Source of the DNA: Candidatus Omnitrophota bacterium
Lineage (GTDB): Bacteria; Omnitrophota; Omnitrophia; Omnitrophales; Aquincolibacteriaceae
NCBI GenBank assembly: GCA_003140935.1
Contig: PLLJ01000021.1
Coordinates: 4,555 to 68,554, forward strand
Direction of reading: 5' to 3'
Length of the DNA stretch: 64,000 nt
Position numbers and translations under genes: made by a program. This document shows, piece by piece, positions 1-62,442 of the stretch. The notes below the pieces were generated by a model, which made no database searches, had not been told where the DNA came from, and worked only from the letters and a program-made list of their open reading frames with translations. The first letter of the stretch is position 1. Each line of letters opens with the position of its first letter.

Positions 1-1
1 T

Positions 2-220
2 TCGGGGAATGCGAGGTTCAATAAAGCAATCGAAGTGTCCGCGCCAGGCTCGGGCGTTTCGGATCTCGAAAAAATCGGGGCGGCCGTGAATGCGATGATC
101 AGAAAAACGGAAGCAACGAAGAGCCTTCTTGTCGGCAGAGCGCTCATTTCCAATTTCTCCAACGAGGTTGCAGCAGATGTGTGCTTAGTATATAGCCCAG
201 AACCTGTTTTAGAACAATAA
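2..220 (+). CDS. 3' end of an upstream gene that starts before the window (frame open from position 2 to a stop at 218-220); product unknown
   Basis: Frame 2 has no stop codon from the window edge to 220. The track's 35..220 ORF is the same frame starting from an internal GTG. No recognisable motif. Confidence 0.3.
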   Translation, partial: SGNARFNKAIEVSAPGSGVSDLEKIGAAVNAMIRKTEATKSLLVGRALISNFSNEVAADVCLVYSPEPVLEQ

Positions 221-459
221 TTTCTCAAAAAAGTTGCCCTTGATTGTTGATTGAGCATTAAACTGTCGAAATCTTAAAACATTCAGGCGATAGCAATTTA
301 TAGCAAAAAATCACTAAAAATGGATTTTTATGCTAACAGAAAAAAATATGTTAAACAGACTATGATAAATCCTTTTCCAACAGGTTGAAATTTAAAGAAT
401 ATGTGCTAATCTTCCATTAAGCAGCCGTCAGAAAATTCTGAAAGGAAAATGTCCATTTC

Positions 460-3400
460 ATGAATTGTCTCAAGCAGTTACAAAGATTTTTTTCTGGAAT
501 AATCGCCATCATTTTCTTTGTGACCAACACGCTCGTTCCGGTTTCCATCGCCCACGCTGCGAACGTAGAATCTCCGGCATTTATTTCTTCATTCACGATC
601 CCCGCGGAATTCGGCAAGGTTACGGACAGGATCAAAGGCTCTGAAGCAGGTCCCCTTCTTATCCACATCCAGGAAGCCCACGCCAATTACGATGCGCAAA
701 AGAACATCAAAAATATTCTGGAGTATCTTTCTAAGAATTACGGTATCCGGTTGGTGCTTCTGGAAGGCGCGGGAAACAAGCTTGACGCTACATTGTTCAA
801 ATTTTTCCCCCGGGAACCCGAACTCCAGCAAACAGTGAACGAGAAGCTCATGCAAGCGGGTGAGCTTACGGGTGCCGAGCTCTTCCTGATATCCTCTCCG
901 CAAGGTGCGGCAGAGGGATGGGGCGTTGAGAAAGCGGAAGCGTACGCTCAGGACCGGGAGGCTTTCAAACGGGTTTTTGAAGGACGCGAGCTTGCGCAGG
1001 ACTTTTCAGAAACCTTTTACCGCCAATGGCAGAAATGCGCCTCGCTCCTACTGAGCAAGCCTCTCAAAGAATTCTTGACCCGCGAAACAGCTTTCGAAGA
1101 GGGGCGCTTGCCGCTTGCGGATTGGATGGTTTCCCTGAAAATGGCGGCAGCCCGCGATCTCAGGCTCGATCTGGACAATGTCTTGGAACAAAAGGATTGG
1201 CCGGTGCTTGTCCGTTATTTCCGGTTAAAGACGATCGACCCCAGGATCGACACCGCTCAAGTGGAAAAAGAGAAAACGGTATTTCTCAAGGATCTTACGC
1301 AACGCGCAACAGGTGACGTACAACAAAATACAAAAGATAAGGACGTTGAACGCCGCGCGTTGAACGTCGTGCGCGAAGTGGAGCAGGTTTTTGAGCAAGC
1401 AAAAAAGAATGATCGCCCCTCTTACAAAACCCGTTTTGTTTTTGAAAAATTACTCGATCAGCTCCCCAAAGACTTTTCGTTCGACGCCTATCCCAACCTC
1501 AGGCTCTACCTTCAGCAGATCATTCTCTTAAGCGAGATACAGGGCGACACCTTGCAGAATGAGATTAAAAATCTAACCGAAAAACTGACCGCTCGCCTTA
1601 TCAAGACTAAGCAAGACCGGCGGTTTGCCGGGATCCTGCATGACTTCCGCCTTGTCAAAAAACTTTTTGAACTCGAACTGAGCCGCAGCGAATACCAAAC
1701 CATTCTTTCCGACAAGATCACGCTCGAGAAACTTCTCCAGGAACTTCAGGCGCTAGACCCGGAAGCGAAGGTCCTCAACAAGAGTCCTTCGCCCAAGCTT
1801 TTGCGCCTCAAGTCTCTCTACGGGACGGCAATCCGTTTTTACGAAGGAGCGATCGAACGCGAAAATTGGATGATGAAGCAAGCGCTTGCGCGCATGCAGG
1901 AGCGTAAGCAGACGAAGGCTGTGCTAATCACCGGCGGTTTTCACACGGAAGGTCTCAAAGAAAAAGTCCTCAGCGCCGGCAGTTCCTACGTCGAGATCAC
2001 GCCGCGCATTGGCGAGGTCACCGCAGATTCCAGGAAGAACTACCTGACAGCCCTCTTAGGCAAAAAGACCGTTGAGACCTCTCAGATCGCAGCGCTGGTG
2101 CGAAGCGATATGTATTTTTTGAAAGAGGTTTTTCCGAAAGATTGGCGCAGAAAATTAGCAGAGCTCGTAACAAACCTTCGCGGCAAATTGCGACAAGTCG
2201 TCAGTCCTGAGAGAGCTCAGGAGGCGGTTAGCGATTTTCTTGCAGCGGCTAGAGGTGTTCCGGCTTTGCAGCCGGCCGGTGCCCGTTCAGAAATGCGGGA
2301 ACCCGGGCAAGACGTTGTCAGCCCAAAGCCGGACCTCCCGGGGCTGACGCTGGGGATCCCGTTGGATATCGGGTCCGAAAGACGGGGGACAGGGATCGTC
2401 GAATTCGGCGCACTCAAAAAAGCGGCAAGGTTGCTTGAGCCTCTTAAGGAGAGTTTCGGGATGGGCCGTGTCTATCCGTATAACAGTCTTTTTGCCACGG
2501 GCGACATCTCGTCGGGCGTTCATCAGGTTCCGAACAAAGGAGAGCATTTTTTAATTTCCAAGAACAGAAAGACAACCGTGATGGTCCGGGGTTATGAGAC
2601 CAAAGGCCACGAACTGGGCGGGTTGACGCTTCGGGACGGGGCGAACAATTTTTCCATTCTTAGCATGCTGAAGCTCAACCCCCGGTTGTCCGACTCCAAC
2701 GCGGCCGAAGGAACCGCCGAGAAAACGGAAAGGGACGTTCGCGCTTTCAATAAAAAAGCCCACGGTCTCGGGATCAAAACCATGGCCAATTTTATTCCCT
2801 GGCTTGCACCCGACGCCATCGATGAAACGAATCTCGATTGGACGTTTTACGAAAAGCGGACCGCCGAGGAGAATGAGTATTTCCGCAGCCTTTCCGAGAA
2901 CGCGAAACAAAATTACATCAATAATCTTTTAAGGGAAAAAAACGGAGCCTTTTTCGCCCGGAGAATGGGGCAGGGGGACAAGGAAGAGGTCGTGCTGATC
3001 CGGCATTTTCCGGGAATGGGCGAAAATAACTATAACACCGATCAAGTCCTGCTCAATATTTTTTCTCCGGGAGTCCAGAACTACTATAAACGGTCGTTGC
3101 GCTACCTCAAGAAGCTCGGATTCGATGCGATCCGGGGCGATATGGGAAGCTATTTGCTTAAGAAGAATTTGTCTGGATTTCTTGCCGCAGCCGGTTTAGA
3201 TCCAGCAGCTTTTAAAGACAAAGATCCCCTTCGGGAGATCCTGAAAGACGCTTCGATGGAAATGGTTTTTGAAGCCTACGATCCGGGTGACCAGGAAGCC
3301 CTGATCGAAGCCGGGGAACCTTCTCCAGTCGCGGTCTACAATGACAGTTTCTTCAGGGCCCTGGCCGAATTTTCAGCGAATCCTTTTATGGTTGCCGACA

Positions 3401-6400
3401 GGATCGGAGCAATCATCGAAGAAGTGCTCCTTTACAAGATCCGGCACCCCGGGACCAAGAAACGGTTTCTTTTATATCCCACCAATTTTGACCAAAATTC
3501 TCTTAATGCCATGGCGCATTACCCCGAAGACCTCGGAAAAGGGTTCTCCGTCGCCGGTGTGCTCGCCCTTTCGTTTGTCACGGCTTATTTGGCGAAAGAG
3601 GACCTGGGTGTTATGTTAATACTTCGGGACGCGTTAGGCCAACGAGGTGATATTCGCCCGATCGTGGGCGGAGACATTTCGGGTCACCGCGCCGCTTTAC
3701 ACGGGGAGCATGCGAAACCTTTCGTGAATACTGCTGAGGAGCTTGCCGCGAGGACCGATATTGACAAATTGGAGCAGGCGATCCGCGAGGCCCCGGCTGC
3801 GAAGTTCAAGCGGGAGTTCATGACGGCCGTGAAGGGGTCAAAACAGAATTTTATCCGGCTTCTCGATAATGCGGACCTGAGTCGCATCGTCACCCTGGGA
3901 TGGCGGACTGAAAAAGGGGAATGGGTGGTTTTTGCGGTGAATCTCCGGCCGCGGCAAGGGCCGATCGATCTTAGCTTTATTGAGTTCCCCGTCCCATCGG
4001 AAGAAAAGCCCCGAGTGGGATCATGGGAAGCAAAAGACGCCGTGACGGGGGAACCCTTAGCACTCGTTACGGAACTTGCCGACGGAAGAGGATTCCCGAG
4101 GATTCAGGACGTTTCCTTTACGGACACGGACTACCGCTTGATCGTCCTTACCCCTAAAGCAGAGACGCAGCGCTCTGAAGCGAGGGAACAGAAAAAAAGG
4201 AATTTTCCGGTCAAAGGGCTCAAGGCGATCGCCAACGGCGAGGCAAAAGGATTCGAATATTTTGGGGCCCGTGAAGCCCGGGACTATATGAACGCCGCGG
4301 CGCTTCATCTGAGCGGGCTCGAATTACCCAACAGGATCGAGCTCGCCGAAGATTTTATGACGGGATTCCAGGCTCGTACAACTCAATTAAAAAGAATGGT
4401 GGATGCAAGAAGAGAAAGAGCGGTCTTTTATTATGGTAGGGCCGATTTCAAAGGCTTTGAAGGAATGAAGCCCGCGGAGTTTCTTGAGGCAAAAGGGATC
4501 TCTTTAGAGCAAGTGAGAGGGAAAAATATCCATGTTGTCGACAAGTATTCCGGAATGTCCCATCACGTAACGATTTCTATCAACGCCACGAACCTTGAGA
4601 GAGAGTTAAAACCGACCAAAAGATTAAATGTTACGGCCGTTTCGGACCTTGATCTCATTTGGATGGAAAAGACCAGCGACGATTCCGAAGAACAGGATGA
4701 GGCACTCGATACGACGAATCGTTCCGAAATGCGGCAAGCGGAGGGTTTACAAGGTTTTGCTGAAAGCACAAACGAACCGAACTGGACTAAAACACATACG
4801 CCGCGCACTGCGAAACAACATATTTATAGCCGTCAGTGGGAGTGCGGGCTGCCGATGGATCTTCTCGAAAAGATCGAAAAATTATACGGTGCTTATGTGG
4901 CCGGTGAAATTTCCCAGGTCACGCTGACCGGAGGATTGGGGGCTTTGATGCCGGACCTTTTCGAGGCGTGGACCGCGATCGGGCTGAATGTGACCGGGAT
5001 CCACCCGCTTTGGAATTTTATCAAGAACACGCCCCTTAAAGGGGCTGATGCCGCAGGATTAAGGAAATTTCTTGGCGAGATCGCAAAGCAACAAATGGAG
5101 GACACCGGTATCAACTTTGACGTTTCCCTGAATGTCCCCGGCTCAACCAAGCCCCGCGTGGTCTCTTTCCGTGTCTACAAAACCCAGTCCATGGTCCACA
5201 AGGCGCCTCAATACTATCTGGATGCTTACACAACGACGGCGGACGGCAAGGAAGAGCCGGCCTTTTTGGAAGTTTATGATGACACCGGTAAACGCGAGAT
5301 CGACATGGCGTTTTTTGCGGCGGCGAGTGAACGGCTCATTCAGATCCTTGAGAAGGACCCCAACCCGGGCAATGTGGTTCTCATCGACCATGAAGTATTT
5401 GTCAGTTTGCCTACACGCTATCTCAAGAAAGCCAAACGGGTGACCCTTAACCATACTGTATTCCGGCCGGGTCTTTTTGAGGCCTGGGAAGGGTATTACG
5501 AAATGTTGAATTTCCCGGAACGGCTACGTTCGACGATCACTCACGACGGAAAAATCAGCATCGCCGATTTCACAGCGGAGGTCTTCCATTTGATCACCGG
5601 CGTGAACCTGGTGGAACATCTTCCTGCGCTTCTGAAGAACATTTTTCGGACTGCTTGGCACCGCGTCATCGGTTTTTATGATCAGGCAAAACAGATCCGT
5701 AGCACGAATGGGATCTTTTTGCCGCGTTGGCAATCTCGGGAGGAAAGGACCTTGATCGAACGGGCCAAGGAGAAGCTCTCGATCCAAAAACCGGAACACG
5801 GTCTTCCGGCGGAAGCCAATGACCGACAATTCTTTGAGGAATTGGACAAAAACCCGGATCTTCAGGAACAGTTCAAGATCCAGCAGGAGTGGGTTGGGGC
5901 GTCGGACGGCGCCAAACTTCTGATCTGGCTTCGCGAAAGACGGGGATTCAAGGGCGCTTCGGATTGGCTGGGGAACACCTTTAAGGAATACCAGAAACAG
6001 CACCAGATGAGCGACGCAGAGCTCGTGCGGCATTTGGAAGAAATGGAAGCACTCATTTCGAAAACCGTTTTAAATGATGCCCCCGAAAACTGGCTGAAAC
6101 TTGAAGAGAAGTTCGCTCAGGCCCGCGATCTCATTCTCGGAGACCCGATCGTTTGTAATGTCCGGCGGCAAGTCCCTTACAAAGGACCGGACAAATATGA
6201 AGAAATACTTGCCGGCGTAATCCAACAGGCGGCAAAAGAGGCCGGCCTCTCCAATGAAATAGAAGGAGTGAGACCTTTTAACGGACGTTTCAAGGCCTGG
6301 AAAGACGGCAAGCTCGACCGGGAAGCCTTTAAAGTGCTGAAAGAGAAGCTGAAAGGGCAGCCGGCAGTCGAGGAATTGCGGAAAGAACTTTGCCGCGTGC

Positions 6401-9400
6401 TCATCGGCGGCCGGACCTTTGATTTGGACGAGTCCCATGACCGTTTCCTGTATATCCGGTTCCTGACGGAAGTACTGGGAGTCGAAGACCGTGTCGCGAC
6501 CCTCGAAGATTACACTTATTACGAAGCGCAGATCATTGCTCGAGGAGTTCAAGGTGCGGTGATGTTGTCGGACGAAGATCTGGAAGCTTCATCCACATTT
6601 ATGATGAAGGTCAAAGCGAATCGCGGAGAGGTGGTCGGGCCTTATGCCGGCAGTAATCCCGAAGTCTGGGACATTCGCGTCGTTAAAACGATCGGTGACG
6701 TTAAAACGATCGGTGAGAAGATCGAGGTTTTGAATGAAAAAGGCGAACCCAATACCAAGGTCATTACTCAAGACATTCTGCGTGAAAAGAATCGCACCGG
6801 GGAATGGGAAATCCGGGACGGCATTTTTGTCGCCTATGCGGACGAGGAACTGAGCCGGCAAGAAGGCGGGAAGAGACGTCCGTCCGCCCGAAGCCTGTTA
6901 GAGGCTTTGAAAAAGATGAAAAAACTTCGTTCGGATCCCGCAACACGGCGCGAGCGCATGTATGCCGCGATCTCGAACTCCTGGAAAGTGGACATGGTGA
7001 CCGGGCAGGCAATGGCTCACGCCTATTTGATCGAGAACATGCTTCGGGAAGAAGAAGAAAAAGAAGCGATGTTCGATTCTCTGCGATTCGAGTCTTCCGA
7101 TTATGCCGTTCCGATGAACGCTCACGATTTCGGGTGGAAGACCCGCCATCCGTTCGAAAGATATTCGGCCAAGGATTTTGGACTCTTCGGATTGTTCCGG
7201 TCTTTTCGCGACATGAAAACTTGGCAGGACAAGGGACCGTCGACCCGTGGGATCCAGGCCCTGGAAAGTCTAAGGCATCATGCTCAGTTCGGAGATATTT
7301 TCAAATACCTGCGAGAAGGGGTCCTGGTTCATCTTTCGCCGGGGCTGCAGCCTTTCAAGGACAAGATCGAAAGCCTGGCGGCAAAGGCTGAAACGGCAAG
7401 CGATAAAGAAGTCATCGCCCTCAATCTTGAGGCCATGGACCTGACGGAAATGCTTTTGGTCCGCATGGCCGGAGATTGGTTTGAGCGATACATGCGGGCC
7501 GATTCGTTTGATGAAGCGGAACCTTTAAGAAAAGAATTGGTCCAAGGCGTGGGGGCGGACTCCCAACCCTGGGCCGATTATATTGTACGTTATCTTGAAG
7601 GGCATCCGGATGCCCGCGCCTTAAGAACCCGCGAGAATAAGATCCGGTCTTTTGTCTTTGCCCCCGCAGGCCAACGGCCGGTCATGGTCAGTCTTAACAT
7701 GGGAGCTATCGCGCACCGTGAAAAAGACGCTTCTTTCGAAGGTCTAAAAGCGCGCACCCAAGTGATCATTGACAAGCAAGCCTTTCTCACGTTGACCGAA
7801 AATGCGACCGATGTAAAGTTCGTTCATCTTCGGGAACCGAAAAGGAAAAATGATTACGCGGTGCTGGAAAAAAAAGATTCGGTCGCAGAAGCCGAAATGG
7901 AAATCGGGGTTGGCATTCCGATGCCTCTGGGTATCGAAGTGATCGAATGGCGTCCAATGAAATTATCGGAACTTACCTCGATCCTGGCGGCAGTGGCGGC
8001 TGGTGAACGGGAACCTTTGGCGATTGATTCTCTGACGCAATTGATCCGCGAAACAGGAGCGGACAATGAATTGCCGTTGACAGCGATATTGATCGCGGTC
8101 GGGAAACAGGAGTCTTCCGCGATGGCTTCTTTCCGTCAATTGATCCGCGAGGCGAGAACGGATTATGAACCGCCGGAAGGGAGAACTCCTGCCGATCATC
8201 TTACAGAGCAGTTGGCGGTCCTTGCGGGTTTGGACCGGAAGAATGCCGCCACTCTTTTCGGGGAGAACTTAAAACCCTTGATGATGCTGATCGGTCTGCT
8301 CCGGCCGGACCTTTTAAAAACATCGCAAATTGCTTCATGGGACCGGGAATTTTTCAAAAAAGTCGAACGTGCCGTGGCCGATATCCAGACAACTTTCGGA
8401 GAAAGCCACGCGGCTGCCAAACAACATAACTATTATGTGATTGACTCTTCTCATCACGGAGCACTTGTCCTTGCCCGAAAAGACGCCAAGGGTGATTCTT
8501 TTTTTGTGACATTGCAATTCGCCGCTAATGATCGTGATGCCGCAAGTGATGGAAAGATCACTACCCAAGTTTCTTCAGAAGGCCTTGCACGAATGATCGA
8601 TCAAGGTGCTTTTTATCGGGTTATTGATATGCTGACGGGGGAAGACTACGGAATTCGCGGGGATCTTCTGCATGGATGGATCATTCGCACGCCTTTTGTC
8701 GGTGGTGCTGACCGCGTTCAAATGCTTCATCTTGAGAAAATAACGCCCGCGTCACGTTCCGAAATGCGCCTGGCGCCGCTTGCACATTCTCTGGAACAGG
8801 GGATCACCGCGATCACCGCACTGCAAGCGAGGATCGCTTCAAAGGCCGTTCTCAAGGAATCCGGAAAAAGGAATCTGAATCACCAGCCGAATTACTTCGC
8901 AGGGGTTTATTCTTACGGGGACATTTTCTGGGGCGGCCTTTTCGCGTGGGGGAGCGTTGCCGCTTTTTCAAACAACGGATCGAAGGCAAACCTGATGTCA
9001 GAGACGCCGGCCGTTTCTTTACCTTCCGAGAACATCATGATCTCTCGCGCACTGAACATTCCAAGAAATAGGGGAGCGAGTCTGGGCAGTCCGAAAACGG
9101 CCTTTTCGGTCGTCCGCTCGGAAACAAGGGATCATCCCGAGCTGAAGCCGACCCTGACGGCGCTGATGGAACGGTCCGCCGAGTTTCGTGCTGCGACCCA
9201 GGCGTTCAAGGACGCGTCCCCTGTAGGGATCTCGAACGACGTCTATTGGAAAGAACCGAAATTCGCGGTCGGATTCGAACGTATGAAGGCCCGGGACTGG
9301 AATGCAACACCTCACAGGGAAGTGATCCAAAAGTTCCTCTCGCTTGTGGGACGGAAAGACAAGCCGGTGCTGGACGTCGGGATGGGCAGCGGGAGAGCCC

Positions 9401-11694
9401 TTAAACAATTTAAAGAGAATGGCTTCACGAACCTTTGGGGAATTGACATTTCGCCGGAACTGGTCCGGCTTGCCGTCCAAGGCACGGCGTTCGGGGAATC
9501 GTTTGCGGGACGTTTCCGGGTCGCGGACCTCCGGACAATTCCTTTTCCCGGAAAGATATTCGGCGGCATCTTTATCAGCGATGTGCTACTTTACCTTTCG
9601 CCGGAAGACCAAGTGGACGCTTTGCTCAAGCTTCGCGATATGCTCGAAGACGGCTCGCCGATTTTTGTGCGTTGGGCGCCAGGGGAGAATCGGTTCACCG
9701 TTAAAGAACAGAATTTCTCCAGGGATCGGAAAAATCAAGGGTGGGTATTCACCGTCACCCCGTCTTACCTAACGGCGTTGCTTGAAGCGACGGGATTTCG
9801 TCTCGTCGAACCAGTCCGTCGGATCGAAGGCCCCATTTATGTCGGGACCGAATACGAAAAACAGCAGCCGTTCCTGACCGTATTTGCCCGGAAGGCCGTT
9901 CCCTCGAATCTCGTAGTCGCGCGTTCTGAAACGCGGGAAAGCCTCAAAGAAGTATTAACGCGAAAAGGAGTTCCTGGAAAGACACTCAAAGTAACACAGG
10001 GAAATTTGTCTTTTGAAGTCGCGCCGGATTACGGGGCGCATCTCCTTTCTTTTAATGTGGGCGGCGAAGAACAGCTTCACCAAAGTTACAAAAACGGCGC
10101 AGGGATCCTTAATATTGACCGTACCGGAAGCTGGTTGATGGCGCCTTGGGTCCAGGGCGCTTTTTTCCCTGAGGATAGGACAACCGTTGTGGGAGGCCGC
10201 GTGATCGACTGGAACGAAGCGCCCGTGAAATGGAAACAGGTTCCGGGCGGTTGGATCGCCAACCACGGCATTGCCCGGCAGCCGGTAAAATGGAGTGTGA
10301 GCGAAACGGATTCCGGGCTCCGGTTTGGACTGCGCTTTGAACATGTCCGGGGGATGGATCCCTATTATCACGGACTGCATCTTGCACGGACGCTGGAAAT
10401 ACAATCTTTTCAGGAGTTCGATAGCCTTACCATCGGTTTCGAGGCCGAAAATACGAGTGATCATGACATTTTGTTCGCTGCGGGCGAGCACTTGATCCTA
10501 GATGCGCCAAACAGAGGATCGACTTTTGCGATCATTCCGGCAAGTCGTTATCTTGAAAAAGACACATTAGGAATGCCTCTTCCGCAAGGACTCTCCGTCA
10601 CGACGCCGGCCTTGAATTTTTTAAACGGGAAATTTTTAGAAAGCGGATTAGATATCGCTTTGACGGGTTTGATGCCTTACCTCCAAGAGATCGTTTCCGC
10701 CCTGGTCACGATTCCTGGAGAAAGAATGGTTGCGGTGAGGCAAAGCGCGATGTACCAGCACTTCGGGCTCTGGACCCCCGCGGATATGCCGCGGGCTATC
10801 GGCTTCGAGCCGCTTAGCTCCGGCCTTGATATTTACCGCCGATCCCTGACCCAAGGTTGGGAGCCTCTTCTTATTGAACGTCACGGCGGAACAAGGTCCG
10901 GGCTGATCACCGTAGGCGTTTACAAGGGCTCGCCCGCGTCATTGGCTGCACGGCAAGTGAACAAGCGTTCGGAAATACGAGCCACTGCTGAGACGGTCAT
11001 GCCGGCAACGATGAACGAATTTATCAAGGGGAACGAATCGCTCGGCGGTGGGAAATTGCAAGGGTTCCGGGGAGTCATTGAAAAGATCATGGACGGCATC
11101 TTGTCGCTTACGGTGTATACGAAACACGCTGTAAATATTGTCACAACATTCTTTTCCCCAACAGCACAATCGCAAGAGACATTTGATATCGCCTCGGTTC
11201 CCGCGACCCCCAATGAACAGAAGCGTTTTGCGGATGCCCGGAAGGTGCTTCTGGGCAGCAAGGTCCTTGGGGCTTCCGATGCCCTGATCCTTGCGCCGGA
11301 ATTCGGCGTCGATCTTGGCGCGGCGCTTTTGATGCGTAAAATTGCCGGTGACGCACCGGTCGCCGTTCTCATCCGGAATGAGGCGGATCGGGGATTTCTC
11401 GATAAGATCAATGTCCAGCTTCATGCGGCCAACCGGCCGCTTATTTTCGCGACTACCGATCTTCATGAAGCCACGCGATTCCTTGGGAGAGCGGTCCGCG
11501 GCACGATGAACATTAAGCCGATGGTCTATTCCGATGAGAAGAACGCGCAAGCCGACCTCTTGTTGCAACAGTACGGGAATGCCGTGATCACGGTCACGCC
11601 CAGAATGTACAAGAACTTCCTAAGCCTTACCGGTGTCAGCGAGATCATCACGAGATTGCGCGACGAATATCTCGCGACCGCACGGTCCGCGTAA
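460..11694 (+). CDS. Giant (3744 aa) secreted multidomain protein of unknown function; N-terminal signal peptide; embedded class I SAM-dependent methyltransferase-like segment near aa ~2960; possible aldose-1-epimerase-like segment near the C-terminus
   Basis: Single uninterrupted 11,235-nt ORF. N-terminus MNCLKQLQRFFSGIIAIIFFVTNTLVPVSIAHAAN is a hydrophobic signal peptide with an AHA cleavage-type site. The methyltransferase glycine-rich motif VLDVGMGSGRALKQF...WGIDISPELVRLA...FGGIFISDVLLYL lies at ~nt 9330-9680. The antisense strand contains only short shadow ORFs. Confidence 0.8.
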   Translation: MNCLKQLQRFFSGIIAIIFFVTNTLVPVSIAHAANVESPAFISSFTIPAEFGKVTDRIKGSEAGPLLIHIQEAHANYDAQKNIKNILEYLSKNYGIRLVLLEGAGNKLDATLFKFFPREPELQQTVNEKLMQAGELTGAELFLISSPQGAAEGWGVEKAEAYAQDREAFKRVFEGRELAQDFSETFYRQWQKCASLLLSKPLKEFLTRETAFEEGRLPLADWMVSLKMAAARDLRLDLDNVLEQKDWPVLVRYFRLKTIDPRIDTAQVEKEKTVFLKDLTQRATGDVQQNTKDKDVERRALNVVREVEQVFEQAKKNDRPSYKTRFVFEKLLDQLPKDFSFDAYPNLRLYLQQIILLSEIQGDTLQNEIKNLTEKLTARLIKTKQDRRFAGILHDFRLVKKLFELELSRSEYQTILSDKITLEKLLQELQALDPEAKVLNKSPSPKLLRLKSLYGTAIRFYEGAIERENWMMKQALARMQERKQTKAVLITGGFHTEGLKEKVLSAGSSYVEITPRIGEVTADSRKNYLTALLGKKTVETSQIAALVRSDMYFLKEVFPKDWRRKLAELVTNLRGKLRQVVSPERAQEAVSDFLAAARGVPALQPAGARSEMREPGQDVVSPKPDLPGLTLGIPLDIGSERRGTGIVEFGALKKAARLLEPLKESFGMGRVYPYNSLFATGDISSGVHQVPNKGEHFLISKNRKTTVMVRGYETKGHELGGLTLRDGANNFSILSMLKLNPRLSDSNAAEGTAEKTERDVRAFNKKAHGLGIKTMANFIPWLAPDAIDETNLDWTFYEKRTAEENEYFRSLSENAKQNYINNLLREKNGAFFARRMGQGDKEEVVLIRHFPGMGENNYNTDQVLLNIFSPGVQNYYKRSLRYLKKLGFDAIRGDMGSYLLKKNLSGFLAAAGLDPAAFKDKDPLREILKDASMEMVFEAYDPGDQEALIEAGEPSPVAVYNDSFFRALAEFSANPFMVADRIGAIIEEVLLYKIRHPGTKKRFLLYPTNFDQNSLNAMAHYPEDLGKGFSVAGVLALSFVTAYLAKEDLGVMLILRDALGQRGDIRPIVGGDISGHRAALHGEHAKPFVNTAEELAARTDIDKLEQAIREAPAAKFKREFMTAVKGSKQNFIRLLDNADLSRIVTLGWRTEKGEWVVFAVNLRPRQGPIDLSFIEFPVPSEEKPRVGSWEAKDAVTGEPLALVTELADGRGFPRIQDVSFTDTDYRLIVLTPKAETQRSEAREQKKRNFPVKGLKAIANGEAKGFEYFGAREARDYMNAAALHLSGLELPNRIELAEDFMTGFQARTTQLKRMVDARRERAVFYYGRADFKGFEGMKPAEFLEAKGISLEQVRGKNIHVVDKYSGMSHHVTISINATNLERELKPTKRLNVTAVSDLDLIWMEKTSDDSEEQDEALDTTNRSEMRQAEGLQGFAESTNEPNWTKTHTPRTAKQHIYSRQWECGLPMDLLEKIEKLYGAYVAGEISQVTLTGGLGALMPDLFEAWTAIGLNVTGIHPLWNFIKNTPLKGADAAGLRKFLGEIAKQQMEDTGINFDVSLNVPGSTKPRVVSFRVYKTQSMVHKAPQYYLDAYTTTADGKEEPAFLEVYDDTGKREIDMAFFAAASERLIQILEKDPNPGNVVLIDHEVFVSLPTRYLKKAKRVTLNHTVFRPGLFEAWEGYYEMLNFPERLRSTITHDGKISIADFTAEVFHLITGVNLVEHLPALLKNIFRTAWHRVIGFYDQAKQIRSTNGIFLPRWQSREERTLIERAKEKLSIQKPEHGLPAEANDRQFFEELDKNPDLQEQFKIQQEWVGASDGAKLLIWLRERRGFKGASDWLGNTFKEYQKQHQMSDAELVRHLEEMEALISKTVLNDAPENWLKLEEKFAQARDLILGDPIVCNVRRQVPYKGPDKYEEILAGVIQQAAKEAGLSNEIEGVRPFNGRFKAWKDGKLDREAFKVLKEKLKGQPAVEELRKELCRVLIGGRTFDLDESHDRFLYIRFLTEVLGVEDRVATLEDYTYYEAQIIARGVQGAVMLSDEDLEASSTFMMKVKANRGEVVGPYAGSNPEVWDIRVVKTIGDVKTIGEKIEVLNEKGEPNTKVITQDILREKNRTGEWEIRDGIFVAYADEELSRQEGGKRRPSARSLLEALKKMKKLRSDPATRRERMYAAISNSWKVDMVTGQAMAHAYLIENMLREEEEKEAMFDSLRFESSDYAVPMNAHDFGWKTRHPFERYSAKDFGLFGLFRSFRDMKTWQDKGPSTRGIQALESLRHHAQFGDIFKYLREGVLVHLSPGLQPFKDKIESLAAKAETASDKEVIALNLEAMDLTEMLLVRMAGDWFERYMRADSFDEAEPLRKELVQGVGADSQPWADYIVRYLEGHPDARALRTRENKIRSFVFAPAGQRPVMVSLNMGAIAHREKDASFEGLKARTQVIIDKQAFLTLTENATDVKFVHLREPKRKNDYAVLEKKDSVAEAEMEIGVGIPMPLGIEVIEWRPMKLSELTSILAAVAAGEREPLAIDSLTQLIRETGADNELPLTAILIAVGKQESSAMASFRQLIREARTDYEPPEGRTPADHLTEQLAVLAGLDRKNAATLFGENLKPLMMLIGLLRPDLLKTSQIASWDREFFKKVERAVADIQTTFGESHAAAKQHNYYVIDSSHHGALVLARKDAKGDSFFVTLQFAANDRDAASDGKITTQVSSEGLARMIDQGAFYRVIDMLTGEDYGIRGDLLHGWIIRTPFVGGADRVQMLHLEKITPASRSEMRLAPLAHSLEQGITAITALQARIASKAVLKESGKRNLNHQPNYFAGVYSYGDIFWGGLFAWGSVAAFSNNGSKANLMSETPAVSLPSENIMISRALNIPRNRGASLGSPKTAFSVVRSETRDHPELKPTLTALMERSAEFRAATQAFKDASPVGISNDVYWKEPKFAVGFERMKARDWNATPHREVIQKFLSLVGRKDKPVLDVGMGSGRALKQFKENGFTNLWGIDISPELVRLAVQGTAFGESFAGRFRVADLRTIPFPGKIFGGIFISDVLLYLSPEDQVDALLKLRDMLEDGSPIFVRWAPGENRFTVKEQNFSRDRKNQGWVFTVTPSYLTALLEATGFRLVEPVRRIEGPIYVGTEYEKQQPFLTVFARKAVPSNLVVARSETRESLKEVLTRKGVPGKTLKVTQGNLSFEVAPDYGAHLLSFNVGGEEQLHQSYKNGAGILNIDRTGSWLMAPWVQGAFFPEDRTTVVGGRVIDWNEAPVKWKQVPGGWIANHGIARQPVKWSVSETDSGLRFGLRFEHVRGMDPYYHGLHLARTLEIQSFQEFDSLTIGFEAENTSDHDILFAAGEHLILDAPNRGSTFAIIPASRYLEKDTLGMPLPQGLSVTTPALNFLNGKFLESGLDIALTGLMPYLQEIVSALVTIPGERMVAVRQSAMYQHFGLWTPADMPRAIGFEPLSSGLDIYRRSLTQGWEPLLIERHGGTRSGLITVGVYKGSPASLAARQVNKRSEIRATAETVMPATMNEFIKGNESLGGGKLQGFRGVIEKIMDGILSLTVYTKHAVNIVTTFFSPTAQSQETFDIASVPATPNEQKRFADARKVLLGSKVLGASDALILAPEFGVDLGAALLMRKIAGDAPVAVLIRNEADRGFLDKINVQLHAANRPLIFATTDLHEATRFLGRAVRGTMNIKPMVYSDEKNAQADLLLQQYGNAVITVTPRMYKNFLSLTGVSEIITRLRDEYLATARSA
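6682..6717 (+). repeat. Near-perfect 18-bp tandem duplication inside the giant gene (in frame: VKTIGD-VKTIGE)
   Basis: gttaaaacgatcggtgac / gttaaaacgatcggtgag at 6682-6699 and 6700-6717. Confidence 0.8.
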
Positions 11695-11738
11695 ACCAAT
11701 TTATTGACCGCTTTCTTAAGTTTCCGTATAGTCTCCTT

Positions 11739-53149: not shown

Positions 53150-53225
53150 TCCCCTGTAGCTCAGCTGGTAGAGCATGCGGCTGTTAACCGCAGTGTCCCT
53201 GGTTCGATCCCAGGCGGGGGAGCCA
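53150..53225 (+). tRNA. tRNA-Asn (anticodon GTT)
   Basis: Cloverleaf readable by eye: acceptor TCCCCTG/CGGGGGA, D-arm GCTC-AGCTGGTA-GAGC, anticodon arm TGCGG-CTGTTAA-CCGCA (GTT), T-arm CCTGG-TTCGATC-CCAGG, discriminator G plus CCA. Confidence 0.85.
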
Positions 53226-54803
53226 TTCCTTAACTTCCGGCGCACCAGCGCCGGAAGGGTTAGTCGTAGGTGGAAATTGCCCTTTTTGAGCTTCGTGCTC
53301 GAAGAGGGCAATTTCTATTTCTGAAGGTGTCCACGTTACCCGTTCCACAAACAAAGGCAGCAATTCCTTCATCTCCGCAGGATCAGCCGCTTCGTAGATC
53401 TGGCTGAATTTTGTCAGGGATTCATACATGATCCGGGCATTCATGGTCTGTTGCTGGATCTGCCCGATCTCAAAGTCAATATTCTGGATATCTTTCCCGA
53501 TCTGGTCTTTCTGGTCCTCAAGCTCACGAAGCTCTTCCGTGATCGATCTATTGATCTTGAGATCCGAATGGGAGGAGATGTTGTGCAGGATGTTCTTGAT
53601 CTTGCCTTTGATCCCGGTGAGCTTGATCTCCTGATGTTTCCTGTCTTTCTTTAATCCGACAAGACTGGATCCGGTATCCTTATTAGCTTCGTCTACTATC
53701 TTCTGAACCCTCTGTTTGTCGGTGCTCATCTTTTTGATCTCGCTTAATACAGCATTTTCCAGTTGGATCGCAGGCGCATACTTCATCTTGCAGGCAGATT
53801 TCCCGCTATTGGCATTGCGCGTACACTGATAGTAGTAGCAAAGTCCGTTTCTTCCGGTGCAGTACTTGGTAGACATGTAGTTTCCGCACCAGCCGCACTT
53901 AAGAAGCCCCTGGAGGAGGAACACATGCTTGACCTTCCGCTTGGGGTTGGTCCTTTTGGGAGCCTGTAGCTGGATCTTCCGGTTCACGTCGTGCCACAGC
54001 TCTTGGGTGACGATCGGAGGGTGCTGGCCGTTGTAAACTTTTTCGAGTTGCTTGATCTCCCCTAGATAAAGAGGATTGCTCAGGATATGCAGGACATTCT
54101 GGTTATAAAATGAGGAACCGCCTTTTTTAGAGTTCTTCCTTTTGGAGACGTATTCTTTTGTGCGATAACCATGCTCGTTGAGGAACTCCACGACCTTAAG
54201 GACGGAGCCCTTCTCCAGATATTTGTTAAAGATCAGGTTGACGAACTTCGCTTCCTGTTTATTTACGACAAGTTTTTTGTCGACAAGGTCATAGCCCAGC
54301 ACGTGTCCGCCATTCCAGAGCCCCTGCTGAGCCCGCCAAAGAAGCTTGTCCTTCGTTCGCTTGGAGGTCTGCTCTCGCTCCAGCTCAGCCCAGACAAGTG
54401 TCATCTTAAGCATTGCCTGCCCCATGGGAGTGGAGGTGTCGAAACCTTCCTCAAGCGAGATGAAATCGGCGTTGTGCCTTTTGAAGGTATCGCTCAGCTT
54501 GTAGAAATCAATGAGAGAGCGGGTGATGCGATCGATCTTGGTGCAGAGGACCGTGTTGATCCTGCCGTCTTTCACATCAGAGAGAAGTTCTTGCAGAGCG
54601 GGTCTGTCAGTATTCTTCCCGGACTTGCCTTCTTCACGGTAGACGCGGACCAGCTTCCATTTTGCGGAATCGTCGCTTCCCGGAACTTCACGGAATTTGA
54701 CGTACTGCTTGAGCCTGTCCGTTTGTGTATCAAGGGATCCGTCGCGTAATTCCGCCTGGCGCTCCGTAGAGACTCTGACATATAAACCGCACAGCTTGGC
54801 CAT
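53184..54803 (-). CDS. Large serine recombinase (resolvase/invertase N-terminal domain plus recombinase and Zn-ribbon/coiled-coil C-terminal regions); probable island integrase
   Basis: N-terminal LCGLYVRVSTERQ (catalytic Ser in the resolvase motif), 539 aa. The 3' end of the gene overlaps the last ~40 nt of tRNA-Asn. Confidence 0.85.
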   Translation of the reverse strand: MAKLCGLYVRVSTERQAELRDGSLDTQTDRLKQYVKFREVPGSDDSAKWKLVRVYREEGKSGKNTDRPALQELLSDVKDGRINTVLCTKIDRITRSLIDFYKLSDTFKRHNADFISLEEGFDTSTPMGQAMLKMTLVWAELEREQTSKRTKDKLLWRAQQGLWNGGHVLGYDLVDKKLVVNKQEAKFVNLIFNKYLEKGSVLKVVEFLNEHGYRTKEYVSKRKNSKKGGSSFYNQNVLHILSNPLYLGEIKQLEKVYNGQHPPIVTQELWHDVNRKIQLQAPKRTNPKRKVKHVFLLQGLLKCGWCGNYMSTKYCTGRNGLCYYYQCTRNANSGKSACKMKYAPAIQLENAVLSEIKKMSTDKQRVQKIVDEANKDTGSSLVGLKKDRKHQEIKLTGIKGKIKNILHNISSHSDLKINRSITEELRELEDQKDQIGKDIQNIDFEIGQIQQQTMNARIMYESLTKFSQIYEAADPAEMKELLPLFVERVTWTPSEIEIALFEHEAQKGQFPPTTNPSGAGAPEVKEWLPRLGSNQGHCG

Positions 54804-55036
54804 TTTTCCTCCGGGGTTGAATAATGGATCTCGATGCGCTATACTTAGCTAAGCAACAGTTATTATAAAGCATCGATAAGGAGAAATCAATCAAATGAGG
54901 AAGTTCACGTTTTGCCCCGCAATCTGCTACACTACAGCTATGATTTTATTCATGTTTGACTATCCTGTATGGACATGTTAGATTATATTTAAACCAAACA
55001 TCGAATTAAGCATATTAAAAACGTAGGATGACAACT

Positions 55037-55813
55037 ATGGATAGTCAAAAAGCAAGTAAGATAAACCAACTCATGAAAGCATGGCCGAAAGGGACTGTAG
55101 CCGTTTATAGCTGGCTGGCCTCCCAGGGGGTTTACCGCCAATTGGCCGGCAGTTATATCAAGGGATCCTGGATCGACCGGATCGGGCGCGGAGCTTTCAA
55201 GCGGGCGGGTGAAAAAGCGGACTGGACCGGCGCGCTCTATGCCATGCAGACACAACTGAAACTCTCGGTGCACGCGGCCGGAAAAACGGCGCTTGGGTTA
55301 CAAGGGTATGCGCACTATGTGCCCATGGGCGCCGGTCAGACGGTCGTTCTTTTCGGGAGTCCCACTGAGAAACTTCCGGAGTGGTTCCGGCGTTATGACT
55401 GGAAAATGAAACCGAGATACACCGCGACAGGATTCCTGGACGTCAAAAAGAGCACGGGCCTTGCCGATCACGCGCTGGGTGATTATTCGATAAAGATCTC
55501 TTCACCCGAGCGGGCGCTACTCGAGGTCTGCTACGATGTGCCTGACGAAGAATCCTATGAGGAAGCCGGTCTCTTGATGGAAGGCCTGACGACATTGCGT
55601 TCCGAGCTGGTCCGGGAGCTTCTAAAAGAGTGCCGCTCCGTCAAGGCAAAGCGCCTTTTCATGCATCTGGCTGAAAAACAGGGTCATGCCTGGGTGAAGA
55701 AGCTCGATCTCAAGAGGGTCGACTTCGGCAGTGGTAAGCGCATGATCGGCAAGCACGGAACCTATGACGCGAAATACAAGATCGTGGTGCCTGTGGCAAA
55801 AGAGGGAACATGA
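55037..55813 (+). CDS. AbiEi family antitoxin-like protein (type IV TA / abortive infection)
   Basis: The N-terminal region resembles the AbiEi_4 winged-helix domain. Immediately upstream of, and overlapping (ATGA), an AbiEii-type nucleotidyltransferase. The ATG at 55028 is an alternative start. Confidence 0.65.
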   Translation: MDSQKASKINQLMKAWPKGTVAVYSWLASQGVYRQLAGSYIKGSWIDRIGRGAFKRAGEKADWTGALYAMQTQLKLSVHAAGKTALGLQGYAHYVPMGAGQTVVLFGSPTEKLPEWFRRYDWKMKPRYTATGFLDVKKSTGLADHALGDYSIKISSPERALLEVCYDVPDEESYEEAGLLMEGLTTLRSELVRELLKECRSVKAKRLFMHLAEKQGHAWVKKLDLKRVDFGSGKRMIGKHGTYDAKYKIVVPVAKEGT

Positions 55814-56730
55814 AGAACAGCCTCTATTACAAACAAGCCGATCTTCTGATCCGCATCCTTCCGCATGTCGCGGAAGAACCCGATTTTGCCCTGCACGGCG
55901 GCACAGCCATTAATTTTTTCGTTCGCGGTCTCCCAAGACTGTCCGTGGATATCGATCTTACCTACCTTCCCGTGGAATCCCGGGAGGATACACTCCGTCA
56001 TATCGGGGAGAAACTCCGGATCATCGCGCAAAAGATCAGAAAGACCATCTCCGGAGTCAGGGTCGAAGAGAAGATCGACAAAACAAGCGGTGCCGTTACC
56101 AAGCTTTTTGCGAACCAGCAGGGAGCCCTTGTGAAGATCGAACCCAATCTGATCATCCGGGGAGCCGTTTCTGCCTGCGAGGAAAGGGAACTTTCAAAAG
56201 AAGCGAGAGACTTCTTCGAGAAATCCGTGAGCGTAAAGATGCTTTCTTTCCAGGACCTTTACGGCAGCAAGATATGCGCGGCATTGGACCGGCAGCATTC
56301 CCGGGATTTTTTCGATGTGAAGATACTCCTGGAGAACGAGGGGATCACCGACGCGGTCCGGAAGTCTTTTCTGGTCTATCTGATCAGCCATAACCGGCCC
56401 ATGTATGAAGTCCTGGCGCCTCGTCTGAAAGACCTCCGGCCTGTTTTTGAGAAAGAATTCTTGGGGATGACCCGGATCGCCGTGACCTGCGAAGAGCTCG
56501 AACGCGTCCGGAAAGAACTGATCGCGAAGGTCCGGAGCATGCTCACCCCGGATGAACGCGAATTTTTAATGTCCTTCAAGGAAAGAACCCCGAAATGGCA
56601 GCTTCTTGGGGTGGAGGGCGCCGAGCGGTTGCCCGCCGTACGCTGGAAGCTGGCCAATCTCGAAAAAATCGAGCGCGGAAAACATAAGGTCACCGTGGCG
56701 CGGCTAAAAAAAGCTTTAGAACTTTCCTGA
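55810..56730 (+). CDS. AbiEii/AbiGii family nucleotidyltransferase toxin (DUF1814)
   Basis: ALHGGTAINFF...RLSVDIDLTY is the nucleotidyltransferase GS...DxD-type motif of AbiEii. 306 aa. Confidence 0.75.
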   Translation: MKNSLYYKQADLLIRILPHVAEEPDFALHGGTAINFFVRGLPRLSVDIDLTYLPVESREDTLRHIGEKLRIIAQKIRKTISGVRVEEKIDKTSGAVTKLFANQQGALVKIEPNLIIRGAVSACEERELSKEARDFFEKSVSVKMLSFQDLYGSKICAALDRQHSRDFFDVKILLENEGITDAVRKSFLVYLISHNRPMYEVLAPRLKDLRPVFEKEFLGMTRIAVTCEELERVRKELIAKVRSMLTPDEREFLMSFKERTPKWQLLGVEGAERLPAVRWKLANLEKIERGKHKVTVARLKKALELS

Positions 56731-56900
56731 AATATCAACGGCGCAATCGGCGATCTTCCCTTCAAAAGTGGTCCTTTTTTCTATCCGTTCGCGATTAGAG
56801 AAATTTCTTAAAACTCTCCTCAAAGGGGTTAGAATACGCGCGTAGCGGCAGTGTGATAAGTAGCGGCCAACATGGAGACAATTAAAATAGGGAAGAGTGT

Positions 56901-57887
56901 ATGCAAGAACTAAAAAATAAACTAAATGAGATAGCTCAGCAGCTTAAAAAAGGAGTTTCACCTGCAAGAATGAGTGCGCGTGACATCCTGAAATTGCTTA
57001 ATTCTTCTCGACGGGGGAGCAATGTCAATTCTTTGGTAAGAAGCGCTTTGGAAAAAGCCGGTCTTCAAACTCAGCCTGATTTTGAATGGGCATATATTGA
57101 TGGTGCCATTAAATTCGTTGCAATTGGATCTGACGAGGATCGACAGGCTATAGCTACAACTTACCGAATTGACGGGCTGGGGTCGGCGCATCGCAAACCA
57201 GTTTCGATTAAGCCAGATAGTTCGCTTAATGAGGCGACCACTATAATGATGGCTAATAATTTTTCCCAATTACCTGTCATGACTACTGAACGCGAAGTAA
57301 AGGGTGCTATCAGTTGGAAATCAATTGGGTGTCGGTTGTCATTAGGTAAAAAGTGTACGGTAGTGCGAGAATGCATGGATTCCGCTAAAATAATAGGAAT
57401 GGAATCCTCCCTTTTCGAGGCAATAAAAATAATAGCAGAACATGATTATGTGTTAGTTCAATCGCAAGAGAAAATTATATGTGGCATAGTTACGGCAAGT
57501 GATCTAAGCCAACAATTTAGTGATTTGGCCGAACCTTTCGTGTTGATAGGCGAATGCGAGAATTTCATACGCCGTCTTATTCATGGAAAGTTCTGCGTGG
57601 AGGAGCTAGATGGAGCAAAGAATCCCAATGAGCTGAGTCGCGTAGTGGAGGGGGTAGCGGATTTGACATTTGGAGAATATGTGCGATTGCTTGAAGATGA
57701 AAAACGTTGGGACAAATTGAAGCTCTCTGTAGATCGGTGCGAATTTATCAAATGGCTGAACAGGGTTCGAAACATTAGGAATGATGTAATGCATTTCGAT
57801 CCGCAGGGCGCCGACCCTGTAGCTATGCAAGCATTAAGAGAGTTCGTGCATTTCTTACAGGAGTTACGTCGTCTTGTTGTGCTGTAA
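56901..57887 (+). CDS. CBS-pair domain protein with C-terminal HEPN-like (Rx4-6H) region
   Basis: Two CBS motifs (KPDSSLNEATTIMMANNFSQLPVM..., ...IIGMESSLFEAIKIIAEHDYVLVQSQEKIICGIVTASDL). C-terminal NRVRNIRNDVMHFDP contains an R-x4-H HEPN-type motif. Confidence 0.5.
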   Translation: MQELKNKLNEIAQQLKKGVSPARMSARDILKLLNSSRRGSNVNSLVRSALEKAGLQTQPDFEWAYIDGAIKFVAIGSDEDRQAIATTYRIDGLGSAHRKPVSIKPDSSLNEATTIMMANNFSQLPVMTTEREVKGAISWKSIGCRLSLGKKCTVVRECMDSAKIIGMESSLFEAIKIIAEHDYVLVQSQEKIICGIVTASDLSQQFSDLAEPFVLIGECENFIRRLIHGKFCVEELDGAKNPNELSRVVEGVADLTFGEYVRLLEDEKRWDKLKLSVDRCEFIKWLNRVRNIRNDVMHFDPQGADPVAMQALREFVHFLQELRRLVVL

Positions 57888-57980
57888 ATAAGGGGATGCT
57901 AAGTGCTTGCCCGCCGCCGATTTTTGGCAGGGGGGGGCACCGTCCGGGTTACGTGAAATTAAAATAAAGGCAAATATGTT

Positions 57981-59417: not shown

Positions 59418-59597
59418 ACCACACACAGATGACAGAAACGGTTCTGGCGGGGACAGTTTGGTCGTGGATATGTCCCGCTGAGAACCGATCCAATTTGCAG
59501 GCATGTGCGGAGATTTGGAAGGATTGGCTGGTATGGCTTTTACCGCAAATAAAAATATTAAAATTACCAAATTCTAATCAGGCTTCAAAGGAATAAA

Positions 59598-61561: not shown

Positions 61562-61579
61562 TCGCGCCTGTTTCATTGT

Positions 61580-62326: not shown

Positions 62327-62442
62327 GACTATCAGAAAACGAAAAAAGAGATGCGGTGAAGTTGCTTCAAGAAGGCAAACCCCTGCCTGAGAAGTACCGT
62401 TTTCTTTTGTTTCAGGATGACCGGGAAGGTGAGCTTGGATAA
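62323..62442 (+). CDS. Possible 39-aa small ORF translationally coupled (ATGA) to the preceding gene
   Basis: ATG at 62323 overlaps the TGA of the 248-aa gene. Encodes MRLSENEKRDAVKLLQEGKPLPEKYRFLLFQDDREGELG. Not in the supplied track because it is under 60 aa. Confidence 0.25.
   Translation: MRLSENEKRDAVKLLQEGKPLPEKYRFLLFQDDREGELG

Follow-up and report, generated by a model that had tools for sequence, protein, structure and literature searches.

The stretch of DNA analysed here (the window) comprises 64,000 nucleotides of contig PLLJ01000021.1 from a Candidatus Omnitrophota bacterium, and carries near its left end a giant gene (460..11694, forward strand) that begins with ATG, contains no internal stop codons and encodes a protein of 3744 amino acids (aa). 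The main feature of this gene is a cassette architecture, in which a short peptide motif delimits the modules and both the leader and the C-terminal module are conserved. The motif, R-S-E-x-R, occurs seven times in the protein, at aa 609, 1238, 1421, 2766, 2886, 3155 and 3503, against approximately 0.075 copies expected from its composition, and divides the chain into eight segments. The codons differ between the seven sites, and the only two other RSExR matches in the 64-kb window both lie in non-coding frames interrupted by stops.

An earlier note, made from the letters of the window alone, had described one very long, uninterrupted gene without low-complexity tracts, and had raised the matter of frameshifts or stops in independent reads. 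The description held, and no breaks were found: the exact 3744-aa product was called on 12 contigs, between 10 kb and 1 Mb in length, in independent assemblies of ENA and Logan, and the open reading frames (ORFs) at about 45 related loci continued unbroken to the 10-kb fetch limit, beyond 3,500 aa. The start codon is backed both by a Shine-Dalgarno-like GGA-rich stretch upstream of position 460 and by the N-terminus MNCLK(Q/R)LQRF... that the relatives share. None of the 40-aa windows of the protein had an entropy below 3.0 bits, and a single strongly hydrophobic segment (aa 13-31) was present. The only tandem repeat in the gene is one perfect 18-bp duplication (6681-6716), which lies inside the fourth segment and encodes VKTIGD-VKTIGE in frame. 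The gene sits in a chromosomal context of ordinary housekeeping genes, and scans for promoters and terminators around it were uninformative.

The protein opens with a predicted Sec-type signal peptide or signal anchor (aa 1-33, 460..558), with K5 and R9 in the n-region, a hydrophobic core at aa 13-31 and AHA|AN in the c-region. The assignment draws on hydropathy, on an N-terminus kept across the family and on a helix at residues 2-24 of the AlphaFold2 (AF2) model, and agrees with the cleavable-looking N-terminal signal that had been described from the letters. The leader follows (segment 1, or seg1; aa 34-608, 559..2283), a putative TIKI/ChaN/Ere-like hydrolase consisting of an alpha/beta core and a helical insert. 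Delimiter 1 (RSEMR, aa 609-613, 2284..2298) separates the leader from seg2 (aa 614-1237, 2299..4170), a divergent module resembling GH13, the alpha-amylase family, and delimiter 2 (RSEAR, aa 1238-1242, 4171..4185) separates seg2 from seg3 (aa 1243-1420, 4186..4719), which is of unknown function and common to close relatives. Beyond delimiter 3 (RSEMR, aa 1421-1425, 4720..4734) lies seg4 (aa 1426-2765, 4735..8754), which resembles GT35 alpha-glucan/glycogen phosphorylases and has extra domains, followed by delimiter 4 (RSEMR, aa 2766-2770, 8755..8769) and the short seg5 (aa 2771-2885, 8770..9114), also of unknown function. Delimiter 5 (RSETR, aa 2886-2890, 9115..9129) precedes seg6 (aa 2891-3154, 9130..9921), a class I S-adenosylmethionine (SAM)-dependent methyltransferase, and delimiter 6 (RSETR, aa 3155-3159, 9922..9936) precedes seg7 (aa 3160-3502, 9937..10965), an aldose 1-epimerase-like module of the galactose mutarotase type. 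Delimiter 7 (RSEIR, aa 3503-3507, 10966..10980) leads into seg8 (aa 3508-3744, 10981..11691), the conserved C-terminal module, which ends in ...ATARSA. All of these features are read on the forward strand. AlphaFold confidence fell at both of the junctions that were modelled, with predicted local distance difference test (pLDDT) scores below 50 for residues 601-608, immediately before delimiter 1, and of approximately 35-42 at the seg7/seg8 junction, where delimiter 7 lies.

A word-indexed search with the leader returned 63 proteins, nearly all of them from Omnitrophota metagenome-assembled genomes (MAGs), with receiver, HEAT, PPDK, GHMP kinase, HAD, DnaJ, APH, GGDEF, sigma-70 region 4, aldolase, SecA and alpha-amylase domains fused downstream of the leader. 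An exhaustive search of 1.84 billion representatives recovered 7,443 clusters at E<=1e-3, of which 934 passed E<=1e-30, and essentially all of the clusters were from Omnitrophota. In each of the 150 best of the 7,443 the leader occupied residues ~1-600, and the longest of these proteins had 7,823 aa. When species-representative genomes were scanned, 350 relatives were confirmed, for which the best 79 loci were fetched; essentially all of these came from Omnitrophota MAGs or single-amplified genomes, often with several loci per genome. Among the 63 first homologs and the 79 loci together, a few were Endomicrobium/Elusimicrobiota records. An Omnitrophota origin, at which the earlier note had hinted by naming this phylum as an example, is thus borne out by both the first homologs and the fetched loci. 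Two of the loci (L031 and L058) showed a short leader ORF (950 and 1081 aa, respectively) followed by a long delimiter-bearing ORF (2640 and 2473 aa) in another frame; either the assemblies contain frameshifts here, or the polyprotein gene is naturally split.

The delimiter is enriched throughout this family. Across 134 representatives (412,624 aa) we counted 650 copies of RSE.R, or 1.58 per thousand amino acids (kaa), approximately 67 times expectation and with a median spacing of 233 aa, as well as 188 copies of RAE.R; the scrambled controls RES.R, SRE.R and ESR.R gave 8-10 copies each. In the 79 loci, RSExR density was 1.28 per kaa in leader-bearing ORFs, compared to 0.077 per kaa in other ORFs. 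The 286 sites found in these loci used all six arginine codons, all six serine codons and both glutamate codons, with 40 different codons at the x position, indicating that selection acts on the peptide. The flanks of the delimiter were unconserved, except for a small residue before it and acidic residues after it. Sites also coincided with the borders of modules: when the modules of the 3744-aa protein were mapped onto relatives, a motif lay within 15 aa of 32 of the 47 module starts and of 12 of the 15 module ends, compared to 6-8% for random positions, and Pfam domains never straddled a delimiter. Whole enzymes were contained within single segments, as for a Glu/Leu dehydrogenase (P0132) and for receiver and APH domains (P0002, P0039), and the 1345-aa seg4 module was bracketed by delimiters in relatives that share only 27-34% identity with it (P0158, 715|724-2005|2009; P0081, 2343|2351-3727|3731). 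The modules are shuffled between fixed ends formed by the leader and the C-terminal module, with cargo and order varying among loci, as in L001 (s1-s2-...-s3-s4), L022 (s1-s2-s3-s4-s8) and L006 (s1-...-s8). Protein P0132 (4781 aa, two cysteines, led by a signal peptide) holds a complete NAD(P)-type Glu/Leu/Phe/Val dehydrogenase together with a phosphoglucomutase domain, and is thus a further case of cofactor-dependent cargo of the cytoplasmic type within a chain that appears to be exported.

De novo motif discovery revealed that some relatives use lineage-specific variants of the delimiter, including RAExR, present in 17-18 copies in P0088 and P0209, and RTELR, present in 14 copies in P0121. 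Among proteins without an R-type site, AxSLG came up (31 observed, 1.1 expected), and the number of R-type sites among these AxSLG users was zero. Motif use was consistent across the paralogs within one genome. Mutually exclusive dialects of this kind fit a co-evolution of the site with one recognition factor, as in pairs of viral polyproteins and their proteases. The 3744-aa protein itself contains a single site of the alternative type, GASLG at aa 2872-2876 (9073-9087), 14 aa before delimiter 5.

The leader is well modelled (pLDDT 88.6), with an alpha/beta core formed by aa ~50-160 and 485-530 and interrupted by a helical insert of approximately 320 aa. Its sequence had no match in Pfam, NCBIfam or the PDB sequences, and a profile of the core alone gave no relevant match to PDB sequences. 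Foldseek returned mostly coiled-coil noise, and the only matches to the alpha/beta core were Bcr135 (2rad/3b55) and ChaN (2g5g), both of which are listed as TIKI reference structures in a study of RRSP (PMC6254334). Likewise, PF04187 ("Tiki superfamily, ChaN") recurred as the top match for leader members (8 of 19 and 4 of 10), and DUF5694 and DUF5682 also recurred at sub-threshold scores. Five residues, H74, E102, E157, R467 and H495, the last within G492-G-F-H495, were invariant in 122-123 of 123 leader members. RRSP is a sequence-specific TIKI endopeptidase, and the catalytic set of its superfamily consists of two histidines, two glutamates and a conserved basic residue (PMC6254334). The leader shares with it both the order of these residues and their local spacing, with H74-28-E102 and R467-28-H495 corresponding to H3902-28-E3930 and R4001-29-H4030 in RRSP. 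It is therefore plausible, judging from sequence and model, that the leader is an active TIKI-type hydrolase, and by its sequence it is the sole universal module with a catalytic-type signature.

The modules between the leader and seg8 suggest an enzymatic cargo. Searching the PDB with a family profile of seg2 gave 43 weak matches (E 0.013-1), every one of them to GH13, which aligned at two short stretches only (query ~149-190 and ~253-292) that we tentatively took for signature regions I and II of GH13; seg2 had no Pfam match, and its orthologous module was found in L001, L002, L005, L022, P0078 and P0079. The profile of seg4 matched plant, muscle and yeast alpha-glucan phosphorylases (E 3.6e-7 to 1e-5) over the region of the pyridoxal phosphate (PLP)-binding lysine, and the segment carries a PLP-lysine-like motif, EASSTFMMK, at aa 2042 (6583-6609). 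Its homologs carry PF00343, the window sequence alone gave only a weak Pfam match to Glyco_transf_5, and the module was bracketed by delimiters in P0066, P0065, P0072 and P0071 as well as in P0158 and P0081. Single-sequence PDB searches with seg1, seg2 and seg4 gave nothing useful, and profiles were needed. The SAM-methyltransferase segment of the earlier note corresponds to seg6, which matched Methyltransf_25 (E 8e-13, 49.3 bits against a cut-off of 27) as well as Methyltransf_11 and Methyltransf_23, and has an intact motif I, VLDVGMGSG, at aa 2970. The aldose-epimerase-like segment that had been noticed toward the C-terminus corresponds to seg7, which matched PF01263 (Aldose_epim, E 1.9e-7, 31.2 bits against 27) over profile positions 15-218 of 299. 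Neither seg3 nor seg5 had a match in Pfam or NCBIfam, and none of the eight segments matched a Pfam peptidase. A word-indexed homolog search with seg5-seg8 gave a single match, indicating that this cargo is too divergent for such a search. Two metagenomic proteins of 1032 aa (P0068 and P0069) are standalone versions of the phosphorylase-like cargo, with their own signal peptides and the tails ...KSAA and ...QSAA, and without leader or delimiter, an indication that cargo modules also occur as exported proteins in their own right.

In over 25 relatives, seg8 was always found at the extreme C-terminus, after the last delimiter. Its last ~165 aa form a five-stranded Rossmann-like alpha/beta domain in the AF2 model, with generic matches in Foldseek, and an alignment of seg8 revealed no conserved polar or catalytic residues. 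The idea that seg8 is a protease was rejected on these two grounds. Complete members of the family end in [K/R]-[S/A]-A-COOH, here ...A-R-S-A-COOH (nucleotides 11683-11691), and their last residue is alanine in 69% of cases, compared to 14% of control ORFs. A divergently transcribed partner gene (1-228, reverse strand) lies upstream of the giant gene and is cut by the edge of the window, within which lie its first 49 codons (MSALPTRR...; 147..1). The full gene, present in L080 (436-2769, minus strand), encodes 777 aa as called and approximately 750 aa from the likely methionine, arranged as a signal peptide, a leader-like domain and an unrelated C-terminal region of ~250 aa with the tail ...KKSV and no delimiter. 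The leader-like domain retains ...IQDVHAH..., ...LEGA... and ...VTGGFH..., and the divergent pair is kept in approximately 20 related loci (L001-L023, L066, L078, L080). It is possible that the partner acts in trans on the polyprotein.

The N-terminal arrangement of K/R, hydrophobic stretch and AxA is kept across the family, and cysteine is nearly absent from the 3744-aa protein. Its five cysteines amount to 0.13% of residues, whereas the window's 36 other genes stand at 1.14% (p ~8e-13). The exclusion is uniform across modules, with six of the eight lacking cysteine altogether; the family-wide values are 0.09-0.17%, compared to 0.91%. Exported proteins of some bacteria are known to exclude cysteine. 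Together, the conserved signal peptide and the exclusion of cysteine support the "secreted" label given in the earlier note, and on these sequence features the 3744-aa protein is likely exported.

The analysis shows that the delimiter exists, is conserved as a peptide, is confined to the leader family and coincides with module borders. The explanation we lean toward, with confidence that is evenly balanced, is an exported polyprotein that is cut at the delimiters to free its modules; we infer export, cleavage and the identity of the protease. According to this explanation, the chain would consist of a signal peptide, a TIKI-like leader, six cargo modules and a Rossmann-like C-terminal module ending in ...RSA, and the RSExR motifs, lying in flexible linkers, would be the recognition and cleavage sites of a sequence-specific endopeptidase. 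After export, cutting would yield the separate proteins in a fixed 1:1 ratio. The candidate protease could be the leader itself, the divergent leader-only partner, or another enzyme acting in trans; segment Pfam scans, homologs and the seg8 alignment revealed no universal protease module besides the leader candidate.

Several observations weigh against this explanation. The cargo is of a cytoplasmic type and depends on cofactors (SAM, NAD(P), phospho-relay), which sits uneasily with export and amounts to a paradox. The PF04187 matches that point to a TIKI leader are sub-threshold (best E 0.0025, 13-17 bits against a cut-off of 27.7), and position 72 of the leader, equivalent to E3900 of RRSP, is variable. 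Between the RSExR and AxSLG lineages the leader differs only at M471, which becomes F with no change of charge, and the lack of a specificity-determining change between dialects is not what one would expect of a leader that reads the site. A role of the leader in determining site specificity is therefore unsupported, in a comparison that is confounded by phylogeny and in which the AxSLG group numbers 10 sequences. In some lineages, the same module border occurs without a recognisable delimiter. We also considered the C-terminal tail as a mimic of the site's upstream half, and rejected this because proteins with ...SL tails lack an internal ...SLG and AxSLG users end in -AA.

The main rival to cleavage is an uncleaved, beads-on-a-string multi-enzyme, in which RSExR would be bound rather than cut. 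A chaperone, a scaffold, the leader or C-terminal module, or the Sec or periplasmic folding machinery could dock at these periodic sites, aiding the export of a very long chain and the separate folding of its modules. A peptide-conserved motif that lies in flexible linkers at module borders suits docking equally well, the protease that cleavage requires is hypothetical, the leader does not co-vary with the dialect, and seg8, which lacks catalytic residues, could be a binding domain. In addition, a recent preprint (bioRxiv 10.64898/2026.06.07.730766) treats such proteins as single membrane-associated polypeptides. However, there is no evident reason for a permanent tether between unrelated, complete enzymes that are freely shuffled; discrete dialects that exclude one another and keep four positions invariant are what is typically seen at high-specificity protease sites; and standalone cargo versions with signal peptides exist (P0068, P0069). 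We consider this alternative distinctly less probable than cleavage, although it deserves to be taken seriously.

A third possibility is that the protein is an ordinary, very large secreted factor for surface display, adhesion or host attachment, in which the enzyme-like segments are incidental. The signal peptide and cysteine exclusion would suit such a role, and giant ORFs of Omnitrophota have been proposed to be adhesins or cell-wall degraders (PMC10066038; West-Roberts et al.). However, searches of the 3744-aa protein against Pfam and NCBIfam revealed no adhesin, lectin, Ig-like, dockerin or repeat domains, there is no low complexity, and the recognisable content consists of metabolic enzymes; the relatives hold receiver domains, kinases, dehydrogenases, and DnaJ- and SecA-type domains. 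We therefore regard this reading as improbable, and the surface or attachment factor proposed in the earlier note is not what the content of the gene suggests. Its companion proposal, a factor in host interaction, could be retained only in the speculative form of effector delivery.

It is also conceivable that the delimiter is a scar, left at the level of DNA by the recombination of cassettes and without function in the protein. The modules are clearly shuffled, and the sites do show a mild codon bias, the first arginine being CGY in 77% (41% in the background) and the serine TCN in 91% (69%). However, every synonymous codon occurs at the fixed positions and 40 codons occur at x, so that conservation does not extend to the DNA sequence; orthologous junctions keep the motif even at ~30% identity; and 15 degenerate nucleotides cannot support homologous recombination. 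A DNA-level repeat or recombination site was rejected on codon diversity, and the scar reading as a whole appears very unlikely. Finally, the notion that the long ORF is an artefact of assembly or annotation that fuses neighbouring genes has a negligible chance of being correct, since, although L031 and L058 show that frameshifts or splits occur in some assemblies, it is refuted by the identical product on 12 contigs of independent assemblies, and runs against the ~45 unbroken related loci, the constant position of the leader at residue ~1 in representatives as long as 7,823 aa, and the uniform exclusion of cysteine across all modules.

Elsewhere in the window, the 44-bp gap after the stop codon of the giant gene contains a sigma-70-like promoter match (11704-11732, TTGACC-17-TATAGT, 10/12), and the next gene downstream is MqnA-like (VitK2_biosynth) and may have its own promoter. 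At the right end, the GC content drops from ~0.52 to 0.35-0.40 (53184-63295). This stretch contains a large serine recombinase (53184-54803, reverse strand), an AbiEi/AbiEii toxin-antitoxin pair (55028-56730), a CBS protein, an OLD-family protein with AAA_15 and TOPRIM nuclease domains (59810-61561) and a SocA/Panacea-domain antitoxin (62612-63295), and is probably an integrated mobile or defence island.

Long and giant genes are a hallmark of Omnitrophota. Long multi-enzyme proteins of this phylum have already been described, and the gene studied here belongs among them as a small example. The published giants (bioRxiv 10.64898/2026.06.07.730766; West-Roberts et al. 2023, bioRxiv 10.1101/2023.11.21.568195) come from the same phylum and, like the 3744-aa protein, combine many unrelated Pfam families in one chain with no dominant repeat. 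PF08241 and sugar domains of the starch-synthase/phosphorylase type are among their commonest domains, matching the protein in the window, and most of them have a signal peptide or transmembrane helices, consistent with the signal peptide predicted here. The 3744-aa protein falls under the 10,000-aa threshold of the catalogue of giants, and the sampled leader-bearing relatives reach 7,823 aa. Neither paper reports a junction motif (the word "motif" occurs 0 times in the 2026 preprint, bioRxiv 10.64898/2026.06.07.730766) or a conserved leader domain, and N-terminal regions are said to "generally lack identifiable domains" (West-Roberts et al., bioRxiv 10.1101/2023.11.21.568195). The same authors state that it is unknown whether the giants are cleaved or act as single chains, that missing cleavage points blocked a domain-wise analysis, and that the existing data for V. 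archaeovorus are too sparse (West-Roberts et al., bioRxiv 10.1101/2023.11.21.568195). The delimiter, the TIKI-like leader, the C-terminal module with its tail, and the exclusion of cysteine go unmentioned in those papers on Omnitrophota giant genes that were searched, and literature searches for the RSExR motif itself returned nothing relevant.

The giant is a member of neither the MARTX toxins nor the viral polyproteins, and its architecture can be seen as a parallel to both. MARTX (multifunctional autoprocessing repeats-in-toxin) toxins, from Vibrio and relatives, are proteins of 3.5-5 kaa with conserved ends around effectors that are shuffled among strains, and the family described here likewise has a leader and a C-terminal module around a variable middle. 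MARTX toxins use a C-terminal type-1 secretion signal, whereas the 3744-aa protein has an N-terminal Sec signal, and MARTX processing occurs after leucine residues in the linkers, whereas the putative processing site here is a strict pentapeptide. The 3744-aa protein also differs from MARTX in lacking RTX or glycine-rich repeats (no RTX or Hemolysin-type Pfam match was found) and the internal cysteine protease domain that inositol hexakisphosphate activates, being nearly free of cysteine, and its cargo consists of metabolic and regulatory enzymes, not known toxins. In viral polyproteins, such as those processed by picornavirus 3C or potyvirus NIa/TEV, a short, strict site lies in flexible linkers, products are equimolar, and site and protease co-evolve into dialects. 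Here, in contrast, the gene is cellular and chromosomal and has an export signal, and the candidate protease is TIKI-like.

The TIKI superfamily itself (Tiki1/2, RRSP, Bcr135/EreA/B, ChaN, TraB/PrgY/GumN) provides a further comparison. Several of its members are extracytoplasmic. By Foldseek, the core of the leader appears closest to Bcr135 and ChaN, and the leader has the invariant two histidines, at least two glutamates and arginine in the catalytic order and local spacing of RRSP. It differs from the superfamily in its helical insertion of ~320 aa, in the variable equivalent of E3900 and in the sub-threshold level of its matches. The two comparisons meet in RRSP, which is both a MARTX effector and a TIKI-family endopeptidase (PMC6254334), and the MARTX literature describes modules freed by proteolysis at inter-module linkers (PMC6315884, PMC4453568, PMC2900308).

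A broader and much more tentative proposal, which we doubt more than the release of modules as such, is that Omnitrophota possess a phylum-wide polyprotein platform, comprising a Sec-exported chain with a TIKI-type endopeptidase leader, interchangeable enzyme and regulator cassettes, an R-[S/A/T]-E-x-R (or AxSLG) processing site, and a C-terminal module with a [K/R]-[S/A]-A tail. Cutting after export would yield stoichiometric, cysteine-independent and cofactor-needing enzymes that act outside the cytoplasm of the producer, most plausibly in or on prey or host cells, in a MARTX-like metabolic hijacking for which the glycogen-mobilising enzymes of this protein might serve. The same delimiter could then provide a cleavage map of the giants of 10-150 kaa.

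The delimiter makes the question of cleavage directly testable, with exact candidate cut sites in at least several thousand leader-bearing proteins, and singles out the TIKI-like leader or its partner as a candidate for the processing enzyme. It also offers a simple rule for splitting long Omnitrophota proteins into units that can be folded and annotated. Even if the chain is uncleaved, the motif, leader, C-terminal module and tail define a coherent family, where the searched literature had only "poorly conserved ORFs with few annotated domains". If processing occurs, this would be a large polyprotein system that is bacterial, cellular and chromosomally encoded, and one would have to ask where its enzymes do their work, given a cargo of cytoplasmic type in a chain that bears an export signal and excludes cysteine.

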